Below the pieces are notes generated by a model, which worked only from the letters and a program-made list of their open reading frames with translations, did no database searches and was not told where the DNA came from. From a virus (lineage: Duplodnaviria; Heunggongvirae; Uroviricota; Caudoviricetes), in the IMG/VR virus record IMGVR_UViG_3300001919_000214: DNA of 5,172 bases. The stretch is one strand, 5' to 3'. The position numbers and the translations under genes are program-made. Positions 1 through 5,172 of this stretch are shown piece after piece. Every line of letters starts with the position of its first letter. The first letter of the stretch is position 1.

Positions 1-933
1 GAATCCTGCCGGGATCTGGCTGTAGTCCACGTTGTCGTAACTGGCTTTGAAGTACGGGTCTTCACGTTTTTCTGTGTGCGTGCTGACGGACGGCGATAAG
101 CGCAGGGAAAGCTCATCCCATTTTTCCCGCAACTTCGACGGGCTGAGCACGTTACGGCACCAGAACGGATCACGGCTGACGCGGCTGTACATCTCGCAGA
201 TTTGTTTGTGAGTACGACCATCCTGCACACACATCAGGCGAATTTCGTTTGCCCAGGCTGTCCAGTTCGGTTCTTTGGGACGAACCACCTTGCCGTCACA
301 TTCGGCGGCTTGCTCGTACAGGGCGATGATTTTTTTCCAGAGCCACTGTGCGCAGGTCAAATCATCCTGCGTTCCCCACTGGCGCTTTTTAGGGCTGAAT
401 ACAACCGCATCAGGATGGCGAGTTAAAAAATACTGTTCAGCCGTCTGCGTGTCCGGTTGCGAAGCGTCCGGACGAGAAGGTTTTTTATCTGACGGATCAT
501 GTTTTGATTTTACTGACGGATCCCCGCCAGATTCTGACGGGTGAAAACCCGCTTTTTTGCCAGATTTCGACGCATCAAATTTTGACGGGTCAGATTTTGA
601 TGCGTCAGATTTTGACGGGTCAGAATCTGACAGTTGAGAAAATGCCGCTGCCTGAAGCTTCGCAACGTTAAGCTGATAAACATTCGACGCATTGCGGTTA
701 CCCTGGCGACGCGCCTTACGCGTTAACCAGCCTTCTGCTTCCAGCCGTGCGATAGCCGTTCTGACGGTACTCATCCCCGCGCCAATCTGACGGGCAATGG
801 TTTCAATTGATGGCCAGCACACACCTTCGTCATTACTGAAATCAGCCAGGCGGGCCATAATTGCCACGCTGGATAATTTCATGCCTGACGCAGCGCAACC
901 ATCCCATACATAGCCGGTTAATTTAGTGCTCAT
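1..933 (-). CDS. Phage replication initiation protein, lambda O-like; 5' part of the gene (311 codons), the 3' end lies beyond the window start
   Basis: Minus-strand frame open from ATG at 933-931 to position 1, checked codon by codon at the start and through 541-633. SD-like TAGAGG lies 6 nt upstream of the ATG. N-terminus (MSTKLTGYVWDGCAASGMKLSSVAIMARLADFSNDEGVCWPSIETIARQIGAGMSTVRTAIARLEAEGWL) looks like a winged-HTH initiator domain, followed by a Ser/Asp/Lys/Pro-rich repeat linker (SDSDPSKSDASKSDPSKFDASKSGKK) and a distinct C-terminal domain. Not in the ORF track because there is no in-window stop. Confidence 0.75.
   Translation of the reverse strand, partial: MSTKLTGYVWDGCAASGMKLSSVAIMARLADFSNDEGVCWPSIETIARQIGAGMSTVRTAIARLEAEGWLTRKARRQGNRNASNVYQLNVAKLQAAAFSQLSDSDPSKSDASKSDPSKFDASKSGKKAGFHPSESGGDPSVKSKHDPSDKKPSRPDASQPDTQTAEQYFLTRHPDAVVFSPKKRQWGTQDDLTCAQWLWKKIIALYEQAAECDGKVVRPKEPNWTAWANEIRLMCVQDGRTHKQICEMYSRVSRDPFWCRNVLSPSKLREKWDELSLRLSPSVSTHTEKREDPYFKASYDNVDYSQIPAGF
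485..642. repeat. Iteron-like tandem repeat array (about 15-bp period, TGACGGGTCAGATTT-like units) inside the initiator gene; putative origin of replication
   Basis: Consecutive 15-bp units at 553-567, 568-582, 583-597, 598-612, 613-627 and 628-642, plus TGACGG motifs at 490-495, 514-519 and 535-540. The same repeats encode the pentapeptide linker of the initiator, as lambda ori does within O. Confidence 0.55.
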
Positions 934-2306: not shown

Positions 2307-3011
2307 ATGGTAGAAGAACAGAAGTATCCAGATTTCGCCAAGAGACTAAACGAGCTAATGACAAACAAGGGAATTTCTGTCACCCAACTCAAAAGTCTTG
2401 TGGGCGTTACATATGAAATGGCGCGGCGATACACAATCGGCGCTGCGAAGCCTCGTGCCTCTGTCATGAATAAACTTGCATTGGCTCTGGGGGTATCAGC
2501 TTCATATTTAGAATATGGTGTTGGCGAGAGAGAAGGATGTAAGGAAATGGCAAGCATCCCCAATCCAACGAAACCCGATGTATACAGGATAGAAGTTTTG
2601 GATCTTAGCGTTAGCGCAGGACCTGGGACCTATATGCTTTCAGACTATGTTGATGTGCTCTACGCCATTGAGTTCACAACAGAACATGCCCGTTCTCTTT
2701 TCGGCAACCGTTCTCAGAATGATATTAAGGTTATGACTGTAAATGGCGATAGTATGTCCCCTACACTCGTTTCCGGAGACCGACTGTTTGTCGACATTTC
2801 TGTTCGTCACTTCCAGACTGATGGAGTTTACTCTTTCGTTTACGGTAAGACTTTTCATGTCAAACGTCTTCAAATGCAAGGTGACAAGCTAGCCGTTCTT
2901 TCGGATAACCCCGCCTATGAGAAATGGTACATCGATGAAAAATCGCAGGATCAGCTTTATGTAATGGGCAAGGCGTTGATTCACGAATCTATAAAATACA
3001 ACCGATTGTAA
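2307..3011 (+). CDS. cI: CI-type prophage repressor: N-terminal XRE-family HTH plus C-terminal LexA/S24 autopeptidase domain (234 aa)
   Basis: HTH region FAKRLNELMTNKGISVTQLKSLVGVTYEMARRY; probable Ala-Gly cleavage site in VSAGPG; catalytic Ser in GDSMSPTL and Lys in FHVKRLQ, arranged as in LexA, lambda CI and P22 C2. Stop TAA at 3009-3011. In-frame ATG at 2271 is an alternative start; neither has a strong SD. Confidence 0.9.
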   Translation: MVEEQKYPDFAKRLNELMTNKGISVTQLKSLVGVTYEMARRYTIGAAKPRASVMNKLALALGVSASYLEYGVGEREGCKEMASIPNPTKPDVYRIEVLDLSVSAGPGTYMLSDYVDVLYAIEFTTEHARSLFGNRSQNDIKVMTVNGDSMSPTLVSGDRLFVDISVRHFQTDGVYSFVYGKTFHVKRLQMQGDKLAVLSDNPAYEKWYIDEKSQDQLYVMGKALIHESIKYNRL

Positions 3012-3055: not shown

Positions 3056-3454
3056 ATGAAATCTGAACTATTTCATAGCGAAGCAAATTCAGAAATTATC
3101 ACTGCAGATGAGTTTATTGATTTCATAAACTCTTTCAAAAAGCCTTTAATTTGCCAAATTTGCGGAAATCAATCATGGAGTGTAGTCGGTACTCTAGAAC
3201 TTGAAGTTGAAGACAATCAGCCAAAACATCACGTAATNNNNNNNNNNNNNNNNNNNNNNNNNNNNNNNNNNNNNNNNNNNNNNNNNNNNNNNNNNNNNNN
3301 NNNNNNNNNNNNNNNNNNNNTAAATTATCCTGGTGGTATGCCGCTGTTTCGAATCACCTGTGATCACTGTGCACATGTACTTCTTTTTTCTTATAAAAAA
3401 GCTAGATCATTGATCCAAAAAAGAAAAAATGAAAAAGAAGAGGATGGGAAATGA
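3056..3454 (+). CDS. Hypothetical small protein with two CxxC pairs (zinc-ribbon-like), 132 aa if continuous across the N-run
   Basis: ATG at 3056 with AGGA 8 nt upstream. CQICGN before the gap and CDHCAH after it lie in the same frame, supporting one protein. Basic C-terminal tail. Continuity across the 83 masked bases cannot be verified. AT-rich. Confidence 0.5.
   Translation: MKSELFHSEANSEIITADEFIDFINSFKKPLICQICGNQSWSVVGTLELEVEDNQPKHHVXXXXXXXXXXXXXXXXXXXXXXXXXXXXXNYPGGMPLFRITCDHCAHVLLFSYKKARSLIQKRKNEKEEDGK
3238..3320. other. Run of 83 N inside the putative zinc-ribbon gene
   Basis: Directly visible. Confidence 1.
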
Positions 3455-4083
3455 CGCGACCTTATCTCAGAGCAGTACCAAACTGTGGATCTGGTATTGA
3501 TAAGTGTGACCTTTACCCCAATGTTAAGAACAGGCTGCGCGTCGGTATAGAAGAAATGTATACTGATTTTATCGAATCCGCAGATGAAACTTACAAAACT
3601 GATGGGGGAAATAAAATGTCATCAGTTAGTCGAGAAGAAATTCAAGCACTTTTAGCTGCCAATAAAGCAGAAATGGAGTCCATTGCATCCTCTATTAGAG
3701 TTGAAATGGCTTTATCTCGCGAGAACACAAACGTTCAGCTAGCATCTCTAAATTCAGCCATCAATTCTATCTCTTCGAAAATCGAAGGCAAAATGGACAG
3801 TGTTGACGGGGATGTGAAGGCCATCAATGGTAGATTCGAAGGTATACAAGGCCAAATTACTGGAATAAATACAGCCATTAGTGGTATTCAATCTGGAATT
3901 TCTACCAGACTTGCTATTTTTGGAGTTATCATTGCGGTCATAGTTGCATTACCTAGCATAATTTCTGCTTTTAAAGATACTTCGCCAGTAGTTCAACCAG
4001 TTACACAACAATCAAGTGTTAAACATCTCAACCAAGAACCAATTACTCCACAAGTATTACCTCCGCAGGGAAAAGCAAACTAA
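3451..4083 (+). CDS. Hypothetical coiled-coil protein with a single C-terminal transmembrane helix (210 aa; alternative internal start at 3616 gives 155 aa)
   Basis: ATG at 3451 overlaps the upstream stop as ATGA, with GAGGA 6 nt upstream. Internal ATG at 3616 has GGGGGAA 5 nt upstream. Heptad-like Ile/Ser/Gly-rich segment, hydrophobic stretch LAIFGVIIAVIVALPSIISAF, then a Pro/Gln-rich tail. Architecture is reminiscent of XhlA-like or exclusion-type membrane proteins; this is low-confidence pattern matching. Confidence 0.65.
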   Translation: MTRPYLRAVPNCGSGIDKCDLYPNVKNRLRVGIEEMYTDFIESADETYKTDGGNKMSSVSREEIQALLAANKAEMESIASSIRVEMALSRENTNVQLASLNSAINSISSKIEGKMDSVDGDVKAINGRFEGIQGQITGINTAISGIQSGISTRLAIFGVIIAVIVALPSIISAFKDTSPVVQPVTQQSSVKHLNQEPITPQVLPPQGKAN

Positions 4084-4106
4084 ACCGGCTTTATGCCGGT
4101 TTTTTT
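4083..4106 (+). terminator. Rho-independent terminator closing the cI-linked operon
   Basis: Stem AACCGGC (4083-4089) pairs with GCCGGTT (4095-4101) around loop TTTAT; T-run continues to 4106, immediately after the stop at 4081-4083. Confidence 0.7.
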
Positions 4107-4198
4107 CTATACAAACGCCCCCCCTTTGTCTTGAATCACATCACAACACATTTAAAAAACATATTAAATTCAAAGCATTAAACGCATCAACGCATACC

Positions 4199-4251
4199 NN
4201 NNNNNNNNNNNNNNNNNNNNNNNNNNNNNNNNNNNNNNNNNNNNNNNNNNN
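4199..4251. other. Run of 53 N in the intergenic region after the terminator
   Basis: Directly visible. Confidence 1.
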
Positions 4252-4421
4252 ATTATCTACTTTTAGTTGTTGATTTTTGCTACTTTTGGTAGCAGAATTA
4301 TTTTAACGACAACGAACAGGCAGGACGCCCACGAAGTAGCCGCCTGGGGCATATGAAGTCCAGGATGATTCGTTGAGTCATGTTGTGCCACCAGGCACTC
4401 ATGTTAAAGCAGGTGTATGAA

Positions 4422-4697
4422 ATGAAAGTCCAGATTTTAAACAATAACTGTGAAGTCGTTTGGTCATACGACATAGCCGCCCCTGTAGATCAGAGCGGCG
4501 ATAGCTGGACCAATGGGAAACATCAGATTATGGCTGGAGTTGTGTTCTCTTTACGCCGTGCTTTGGAACAGGCTGAAGTATTTCCATCAGACCCTGAATG
4601 GAAATGGCCTTTTTCTATTTGTCCAAATTCGGAGAGCACATTTCAGAAAATTGGTCAGAAAGTCGCACTCGAAGAGCATCAGCCAACTGTTTCCTGA
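4422..4697 (+). CDS. Hypothetical protein (91 aa from ATG 4422; the ORF extends in frame to ATG 4380)
   Basis: AGGTG lies 6 nt upstream of ATG 4422. Codon pattern looks coding. No recognisable motif; not Arg-rich, so not an N-type antiterminator. Its last 83 bp overlap the convergent minus-strand ORF. Confidence 0.4.
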   Translation: MKVQILNNNCEVVWSYDIAAPVDQSGDSWTNGKHQIMAGVVFSLRRALEQAEVFPSDPEWKWPFSICPNSESTFQKIGQKVALEEHQPTVS

Positions 4698-4860
4698 TTT
4701 TTTCAGGTAACTCGTCGGCATCGCAGAAACAACAACGCTCGATCATGTTGAAAGCCGATTCGTAGAACTGTTTCCGCTGAGTGTCGCTGAGACAGGAAAA
4801 GAGCGACGTTACGATGATTTTATTAATTGCATTATCAAGTTCTTTTTCATCAAAAGTCAT
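4615..4860 (-). CDS. Hypothetical small acidic, Cys-containing protein (81 aa)
   Basis: ATG at 4860 with AGGA 7 nt upstream. Contains CCFC and a further Cys; no HTH seen. Overlaps the plus-strand ORF at its 3' end. Confidence 0.5.
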   Translation of the reverse strand: MTFDEKELDNAINKIIVTSLFSCLSDTQRKQFYESAFNMIERCCFCDADELPEKIRKQLADALRVRLSDQFSEMCSPNLDK

Positions 4861-5113
4861 TTGATTTTCCTTTTATGTATACGGGCTTAAAAGGATACCA
4901 CCGAGCCTGAAGTGGTGAAAAGACAGGCACATAACAGCTAAGTATTTTCAACCAGAGAGAATCCTTAGCGTTGTGGTGAATGCGGCTCAGCGCACGCGGG
5001 TTAAGGTTGAGGCTGACAGTCGACCTTCTGTGGATACCCACCCGTCTGGTGTGCAACCTTCGCCAGGCACCGGGAGGCACCCGGCACCACAACTTTATGC
5101 TGTGTGTAGTCCT
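4861..5113. other. GC-rich, hairpin-rich stretch with no credible ORF; candidate structured RNA or long structured leader
   Basis: The only ORF here (4850-5092, minus) gives an Arg-rich, low-complexity translation typical of noncoding GC-rich DNA. Several short inverted repeats are present (for example ACCAC/GTGGT around 4898-4917). Strand and function are undetermined. Confidence 0.3.
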
Positions 5114-5160
5114 GGCGGTACCAGTTTGTACACTTGCTTCCGGCTGGTACCGTCCTTTTT
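5114..5160 (+). terminator. Terminator-like hairpin with T-run on the plus strand
   Basis: 11-bp stem (5114-5124 with 5144-5154, one G-U pair), 19-nt loop, then TTTTT at 5156-5160. On the minus strand the same hairpin is preceded by A5, so it is not a minus-strand terminator. Confidence 0.55.
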
Positions 5161-5172
5161 ACAAAACAGAGA

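Follow-up and report, generated by a model that had tools for sequence, protein, structure and literature searches.

A 5,172-nucleotide (nt) stretch of viral DNA (IMG/VR record IMGVR_UViG_3300001919_000214), hereafter the window, carries a small gene for a putative membrane protein, gene B, which has two in-frame start codons, each behind its own Shine-Dalgarno (SD) sequence. Comparison with homologues leads us to infer, with good confidence, that both starts are used in vivo and that two isoforms of 210 and 155 amino acids (aa) are made. The window is 99-100% identical to E. coli chromosomes and represents the immunity region of a lambdoid prophage of E. coli; its runs of N (2203-2250, 3238-3320 and 4199-4251) are masks, and locus L001 is the unmasked copy. 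Gene B stands directly behind a partner gene, gene A, downstream of a cI-like repressor gene. The explanation that best covers the data overall, to which we give about an even chance, is that two isoforms of a tail-anchored protein B are produced from a cI-linked cassette whose function would be rex-like exclusion.

The features of gene B referred to below, in window coordinates, are as follows.

3451..4083, + strand: long form of gene B, 210 aa; start codon overlapping the gene A stop (ATGA); phrog_5820
3440..3444, + strand: SD 1 (GAGGA), serving the long form; 6-nt spacer to ATG 3451-3453; anti-SD pairing -7.6 kcal/mol
3451..3615, + strand: N-terminal extension, residues 1-55, long form only; predicted disordered, variable, partner-type-specific
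3604..3609, + strand: SD 2 (GGGGGA), inside Gly-Gly-Asn codons of the long form; 6-nt spacer
3616..4083, + strand: gene B, putative short form, 155 aa; starts at Met56, where the conserved core begins
3631..3792, + strand: long cytoplasmic helix, residues 61-114, coiled-coil candidate; AlphaFold2 predicted local distance difference test (pLDDT) 83-86; Gly-rich heptads (~115-152) follow
3910..3972, + strand: single C-terminal hydrophobic segment, predicted tail anchor, residues 154-174; from the sequence and an AlphaFold2 helix
3973..4080, + strand: Pro/Gln-rich C-terminal tail, 36 aa, presumably periplasmic; predicted disordered

A second start inside gene B

An initial annotation of this DNA had pointed to two in-frame starts with separate SD sequences, the first of them coupled to the preceding gene, and both points can be read directly from the sequence (GAGGA-N6-ATG 3451 and GGGGGA-N6-ATG 3616). 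ATG 3451 overlaps the TGA stop (3452-3454) of the upstream open reading frame (ORF) at 3056-3454, while ATG 3616-3618 lies in the same frame 165 nt, or 55 codons, further downstream; the gene B ORF ends with TAA 4081-4083. Anti-SD pairing before ATG 3616 reaches -8.4 kcal/mol against a background mean of -1.3, a value equalled by 0.5% of in-frame gene positions. The same holds across the family: the mean over 25 non-redundant homologue DNAs is -7.0 kcal/mol ahead of the internal start, compared with about -1.5 in the background, the within-gene percentile has a median of 0.02, and 19 of the 25 fall into the top 10%; examples are ACGGAGGAAGAAGTG, AAGGAGGAGCATATG and CAGGAGGAGCCTATG. On average, the internal SD is stronger than the first (-7.3 vs -4.3 kcal/mol; Wilcoxon p=4e-4), although the homologue lineages are related, such that this and the following statistics overstate independence and the p-values are optimistic.

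The start codon itself is conserved in a telling manner. Among 152 alignable representatives of 50%-identity clusters, 130 have a Met 4-10 residues before the invariant E63, and the remaining 22 offer only Val (18), only Leu (3) or neither (1). Wherever DNA was available for a Val lineage (three HK542-like clades plus eight further lineages), the codon is GTG, that is, in 11/11 cases, with GGAG or GAGG 5-9 nt upstream of each such site; other Val residues nearby use GTT or GTA. Counted from E63, the start varies in position between -4 and -9, yet the SD is kept. Codon choice upstream follows the same pattern. Glu codons at -5 to -2 before the internal start are GAG rather than GAA by 29 to 8 in 33 homologues (78% GAG), compared with 120 to 279 elsewhere in the same genes (30% GAG; odds ratio 8.4, Fisher p=1e-8). 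Since GAG and GAA are synonymous, protein-level selection cannot explain this bias. Gly codons before the internal start likewise lean to GGR (p=0.04).

The conserved core of the protein begins exactly at Met56, preceded in different homologues by 0 to ~125 residues of variable sequence. Two homologues, L048 and L092, are short-only genes, starting exactly at the internal site behind AGGAGG, with in-frame stops just upstream and no partner gene. A further candidate of this kind, protein P0013 (L091 2360-2965), which the gene caller began at the internal site (154 aa), was rejected as a short-only gene: its frame is open further upstream, with the HLRAV motif in it, and a partner gene of the CxxC kind overlaps this longer frame. 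Long and short calls for the same architecture are thus mixed in databases, which calls for caution in annotation, as gene callers pick either start of gene B homologues. In sum, comparative evidence strongly backs selection on the internal start throughout the family.

Could the long form nevertheless be the only product? The internal ATG or GTG and its purine stretch would then be the relic of a stand-alone gene start, or reflect protein constraint such as an acidic/Gly linker or a hydrophobic helix cap. The motif MS(D/N)xS(R/K)xEL opens the core, so that the Met could be structural, and the stand-alone short genes could represent the ancestor. Yet extensions are unalignable between clades, and an unselected relic start should therefore have decayed. 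The exclusive use of GTG for Val, the near absence of Ile or a non-start Leu at the site, the synonymous GAG bias and a start that drifts while retaining its SD all speak against this reading, which we regard as improbable.

As to the extension, every partner-bearing homologue has 35-107 open codons ahead of the internal start. The extension's ratio of nonsynonymous to synonymous substitution rates (dN/dS) is 0.24 in the comparison with L054 and 0.17-0.48 pairwise across clades; the core gives 0.11-0.12 (two pairs with unsaturated core dS). In 29/32 homologues the distance of the long start from the partner stop is between -20 and +10 nt, often as an ATGA overlap, and the extension retains clade-specific motifs (LRAVPNCGSGIDKxDLYPN, LKVVGGSDFxAEFDNS, FxMPAYHEK). 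Judged by these comparisons, the 55-residue extension is coding, and the arrangement fits a long form tied to partner translation alongside a short form made independently. The converse possibility, that only the short form is made and the 55 codons are an untranslated spacer over-extended by gene callers, would sit well with the generally stronger internal SD, with the homologue called from its internal start and with an extension predicted to be disordered and poorly conserved. It is even less probable than the long-only reading, given the open frame in all partner-bearing homologues, the dN/dS values, the overlap or abutment of start and partner stop, and the peptide motifs. The earlier proposal of two products sharing a coiled coil and an anchor and differing by 55 residues thus gains support from the GTG-only Val sites, the SD codon bias, the short-only genes and dN/dS, although it, too, is a reading of sequence comparisons. 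Its emphasis on a Cys-containing extension fares less well: C12 and C19 are present, but they are not conserved, an 80%-identical homologue (L054) retaining only one of them. Near the long-form N-terminus, a basic-hydrophobic motif, [RK]xx[LF][RKQ][AV]V, occurs with both the Z and the E type of partner described below (YLRAV at window 3460-3480); apart from it, the extensions of the two types are unrelated.

Two further ways of controlling the short form were considered and set aside. The sole promoter-like match within the extension (L001 7275-7302) comes from a scan whose counts equal shuffle expectation, and its -10 element overlaps the internal ATG, which means that it cannot serve the short form. 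A 9-bp hairpin holds the internal SD and AUG in its loop; as a control by mRNA structure this was rejected, the 100-nt fold being no better than shuffles (z=-0.48). For the region of the first start the corresponding value is z=-1.46, and close homologues vary too little for covariation.

With regard to the shared part of the protein, the initial annotation had proposed a coiled coil and a C-terminal anchor, and the predictions agree. An AlphaFold2 model built with 37 homologues, without the HK542 row, leaves residues 1-60 disordered and devoid of secondary structure (pLDDT ~50) and predicts helices at 61-114 (pLDDT 83-86), more weakly at 125-142, and at 149-174 (pLDDT ~76). The uncharged stretch LAIFGVIIAVIVALPSIISAF corresponds to residues 154-174 and is flanked by R153 and K175; this hydrophobic segment is kept in 37/37 aligned homologues, with L154, F157 and A166 invariant. 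Being the only hydrophobic segment and followed by a 36-residue tail, it places the protein in the tail-anchored topological class, and we infer an inner-membrane protein inserted with its N-terminus inside and its C-terminus outside. The tail shows a QPIxIQVPQ motif in the family consensus, and P188 is invariant. Length differences in the Gly-rich region (residues ~115-135 of B; columns ~229-276 of alignment A1) come in units of 4, 7 or 11, for example 7 residues (IDGKIEG), 4 residues in a single clade, and both 11 and 7 in P0035; units of 7 and 11 are what a coiled coil built of heptads or hendecads would lead one to expect.

A variable partner on a conserved core

The gene immediately upstream of gene B differs between homologous loci. 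In the window it is the following.

3056..3454, + strand: partner gene A, a small CxxC...CxxC protein, phrog_4293; 120 aa unmasked, its interior masked by N at 3238-3320

Its family is rare, with only 4 clusters in 5.8 billion proteins; it has no Pfam family, and its AlphaFold2 model is of low confidence and gave no fold match. The unmasked gene in L001 (99.9% identical) measures 363 nt, as opposed to 399 nt in the window. Altogether, the genes upstream of B form five multi-member sequence clusters and two singletons, and the clusters appear to group into at least four unrelated kinds: Z partners, the type found in the window (CxxC...CxxC, ~120-130 aa, phrog_4293), E partners (phrog_5893, ~144 aa) and several families of ~90-110 aa. 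No partner type has a match in Pfam or PADLOC.

Extensions follow partners closely. Extension clusters nest within partner clusters, all 31 of 31 same-extension pairs sharing a partner family against a background of 82/496 pairs. Core similarity, by contrast, interleaves the partner types: identity of the L001 core with E-type cores is 63-68%, and among Z-type cores it is 58% with that of L070 and 36% with that of L051. Nested extensions on interleaved cores suggest that partner and extension move as one unit onto a shared core, with the junction at the internal start. The position of this junction, together with the lack of an extension in the partner-less genes, argues that the two are functionally linked; in the simplest case, the partner would dock on the disordered extension. 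Partner A thus probably docks on the extension of the long form.

The immunity-region cassette and its possible function

The cassette is embedded in the repressor operon by the following features.

2307..3011, + strand: cI-like repressor (helix-turn-helix HTH_3 plus Peptidase_S24), the operon's first gene; Pfam PF00717 1.7e-16, PF01381 1.9e-5
2187-2199 and 2256-2268, + strand: right-operator (OR)-like pair CTACTTAAAATAG; sequence in between masked in the window
4257-4269 and 4280-4292, + strand: left-operator (OL)-like pair downstream of the cassette, from motif count and sequence
4082..4107, + strand: intrinsic terminator closing the cI-A-B unit; 8-bp stem with 5 GC pairs and a T-run; L001 7767-7787 corresponds to window 4082-4102

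The putative operator CTACTTNNNNTWG has 4 copies in 13.9 kb of L001, where 0.14 would be expected, arranged as two pairs 23 bp apart, one in the gap between cro and cI and one just past the gene B terminator, and nowhere else (L001 5954-5989 and 7895-7930). Because these operators flank A-B, the cassette has OR on one side and OL on the other, and it shares its strand with the repressor. One OL site in L001 is a perfect palindrome, TGCTAC-N5-GTAGCA, and the OR spacer takes up 48 N in the window compared with ~10 nt in L001. RefSeq labels the repressor (2307-3011) an XRE family regulator of 234 aa.

This setting recurs. The order O-cII-cro / cI(HTH+S24) - partner - B - (terminator) - N is found in E. 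coli (L001, L090) and Salmonella (L081), in phages HK542 and HK244, in other assembled genomes and in many metagenomic contigs. HK542, a cultivable phage, and HK244 have a lambda-like repressor and PR, PRM and PL promoters, without rexAB at the cI-N site. Gene B itself belongs to phrog_5820, a family of unknown function (E=6.8e-69, residues 8-201 on profile positions 2-195 of 200; 4.5e-77 for the HK542 homologue). A profile search of 1.84 billion cluster representatives returned 329 relatives (50%-identity clusters) at E<=1e-3, 113 of them with E<=1e-10, and 65/5,426 complete E. coli genomes (about 1%) carry the gene. Its copies in these genomes and in HK542/HK244 are all annotated as hypothetical protein.

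Cassettes of the HK542 type (L015, L026-L029, L037, L038) have an extra 113-aa ORF (MAFTDLEYQAVKK...) between repressor and partner (~1996-2337, locus coordinates), and this type is preceded by repressors of at least five immunity types. The short-only genes L048 and L092 belong to Xenorhabdus-type prophages, where B sits in an immI-like setting: in L092 the order is Arc-like repressors, ORF6N antirepressor, B and RelB/YafQ toxin-antitoxin, so that B does not follow a cI-like repressor, and in L048, by visual inspection, two ORFs precede B, one Arc-like and the other (281 aa) antirepressor-like.

The cassette resembles RexA-RexB of lambda in where it lies and in being made of two parts, and in its nested starts gene B resembles SieB/Esc and S105/S107. 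A-B and rexAB share one genomic slot (cI - two genes - terminator - OL/PL) and the strand of cI; both pairs are presumed to be cotranscribed with the repressor in lysogens, and both combine a cytoplasmic with a membrane protein. Unlike RexB, which is polytopic, gene B has a single C-terminal transmembrane segment (TM), and its partners are proteins of 90-160 aa from at least four apparently unrelated families (gene A, 120 aa), compared with a rexA coding sequence of 840 bp (about 279 aa). Lambda supplies extra RexB from a second promoter; in the A-B cassette, the extra membrane component would instead come from an internal translation start. Rex activity depends on the stoichiometry of its membrane component, excess RexB suppressing Rex (PMC8585504). 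The cI-N interval more widely is a mosaic hotspot for accessory and defence genes expressed in lysogens from the repressor promoter, such as rexAB and bstA (PMC8585504, PMC7067206). Like A-B, bstA lies directly downstream of the prophage repressor in this interval and has its own terminator (PMC8585504, PMC7067206). BstA, however, is a single protein that localises to phage DNA replication sites and has a DNA-based self-immunity element (PMC8585504), and it is dissimilar to gene B in sequence and architecture.

SieB-Esc of P22 and lambda offers a parallel for the nested starts: this prophage gene yields a full-length protein and, in the same frame, one truncated at the N-terminus, as gene B probably does. 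The sieB reading frame contains that of Esc, which inhibits SieB, just as S107 inhibits S105 (PMC3224144), and the sas RNA switches sieB translation (PMC12197685). Unlike gene B, which is part of the repressor operon and has a variable upstream partner, sieB lies beyond N in the PL operon region and has no such partner. The S105/S107 holin/antiholin pair shares with gene B two in-frame starts in one phage membrane-protein gene and forms that differ at the N-terminus, and the longer lambda S form alters the activity of the shorter (PMC3224144); the S forms differ by 2 residues, however, and those proposed for gene B by 55. The C-terminal anchor, the 55-residue disordered extension and the swappable partner set gene B apart from all three systems. 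None of the likenesses extends to homology in the comparisons made: the gene B family profile gave an hhalign probability of 0.2% (E=0.39) with lambda SieB and of 0.25% with lambda RexB.

On the reading we prefer, the lysogen would transcribe A and B together with the cI-like repressor. Translation of the long isoform (210 aa) would begin at ATG 3451, coupled to that of gene A through the ATGA overlap, and the disordered extension of this isoform would dock partner A, while the short isoform (155 aa), translated from ATG 3616 by its own SD, would represent the bare conserved core. The isoforms might co-assemble through the helical region, with the variable cytoplasmic partner as a sensor or regulator acting on the conserved membrane effector B; the cassette would then exclude or abort superinfecting phage, the long:short ratio setting a threshold or self-immunity. 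As a complete chain from sensor and effector to isoform ratio, this model is tentative. Nor would we claim more than speculative standing for its generalization, namely, that phrog_5820 cassettes are an unrecognised modular family of immunity-region defence systems of prophages, in which a swappable sensor is tethered by a sensor-specific extension and the short isoform sets a threshold or self-immunity during induction.

Several considerations weigh against this interpretation. The two isoforms, membrane insertion, docking and the anti-phage role are all deductions from sequence and its comparison, drawn from related lineages. The Met or Val at the internal start may partly be a structural residue of the conserved motif that opens the core. 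Partner and extension are adjacent on the DNA, and their co-inheritance could thus reflect linkage rather than interaction. Overall AlphaFold2 confidence is low (pLDDT 60.6 and 59.6 for the two models), and a PDB sequence-profile search and Foldseek on both models returned only sub-threshold coiled-coil or zinc-ribbon noise. In PADLOC-DB v2.0.0, gene B has no significant match to a defence model, only coiled-coil noise (PbeC 0.0014, LmuB 0.013, partial), and its partners have no match whatsoever. Across the Pfam, PADLOC, PDB-profile and Foldseek searches, nothing points to an effector activity.

Pfam returned for gene B only sub-threshold coiled-coil families, namely, CCDC90-like/DUF1640 (PF07798), Baculo_PEP_C (PF04513) and NPV_P10, the Baculo_PEP_C and CCDC90-like scores being 23.5 bits vs a gathering cut-off of 38 and 14.8 vs 33.5, respectively. 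CCDC90-like proteins have a helical rod followed by a C-terminal TM, a general architecture also seen in gene B, but their Pfam score is below the cut-off. Baculo_PEP_C is a documented source of nonhomologous, convergent coiled-coil matches (PMC3695513). The gene B profile also aligned to the membrane-inserting head of the alpha-pore-forming toxins SmhB/AhlB with a nonsignificant E=0.036; together with the Gly-rich amphipathic heptads beside the TM, this match is only a lead towards pore formation.

The most serious competitor accepts both isoforms but assigns them a role in lysogenic conversion or housekeeping, be it remodelling of the membrane or envelope, regulation of induction or lysis of the prophage itself, or a contribution to host fitness or virulence. 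The dual-start evidence is equally compatible with such a role, and the lack of a match among the known defence models of PADLOC agrees with it. The cI-N interval also houses accessory genes without a proven defence role (PMC7067206), and the short-only relatives adjoin antirepressor and toxin-antitoxin genes, not a cI-like repressor. What tilts us towards exclusion is a combination typical of defence cassettes (PMC8585504), in which a conserved membrane module has a changing partner, shuffles as a mosaic and lies exactly where rexAB and bstA do; it is not decisive, and we regard the nondefence role as possible, if rather unlikely.

The initial annotation had further drawn a parallel to holin/antiholin pairs, which stands as an analogy only, SieB/Esc and the RexA:RexB ratio being closer in view of a repressor operon in the immunity region and not a lysis cassette. 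A lysis timer in the strict sense, with two forms controlling when the membrane is permeabilised at the end of the lytic cycle, would account for a dual-start phage membrane protein with heptads beside its TM and the weak SmhB/AhlB match, but we consider it very improbable: every locus examined has gene B between the cI-like repressor and OL/N, not beside genes for endolysin and spanin, and its expression probably belongs to the lysogen, not to the late phase; a cytoplasmic part of ~150 residues with one C-terminal TM is unlike the small, TM-dominated proteins of the known holin classes, the isoforms differ by 55 and not 2-3 residues, and neither Pfam nor PHROG holin models match.

Taken together, phrog_5820, hitherto an uncharacterised family, likely encodes nested-start isoforms in an exclusion-type prophage cassette. 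How prophage defence systems spare their own prophage is largely unknown (PMC8585504), and this family would be a compact case in which the isoform ratio appears hard-wired by the conserved internal start. If true, it would constitute a translational answer to a problem that lambda handles by the RexB:RexA ratio and P22 by Esc, and would contribute both a new defence or exclusion family and a general design principle, that of a coupled long isoform accompanied by a free short one.

Surrounding features of the window

A DNA search of the phage collection returned nothing near-identical to the window, HK542 and HK244 emerging as relatives at the protein level only. The lengths of the masks differ from the real sequence, and window coordinates therefore shift by region relative to real genomes. 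Beyond the OL-like pair, the position of lambda N is taken by another gene.

4422-4697, + strand: 91-aa gene, phrog_3195, function unknown; occupies the lambda N position

No N-like peptide was seen in this region (window 4422-4697), where lambda has N. A convergent 81-aa ORF on the minus strand (4615-4860) is preceded by a good SD (AAGGA-N8-ATG), shares 83 nt with the 3′ end of the 91-aa gene and is without RefSeq annotation in L001. The end of the window (~4900-5172) is richer in GC and contains several stretches resembling inverted repeats, with no Rfam match at the gathering threshold; a scan of the whole window gave no Rfam family either. On the other side of the repressor, the minus strand carries a replication O gene, a YmfL-like gene and a cro-like gene. 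Within the O gene (minus strand, window 561-624), ~4.3 copies of the 15-bp unit CAGATTTTGACGGGT form iterons at the place where the ori iterons of a lambdoid phage are expected.

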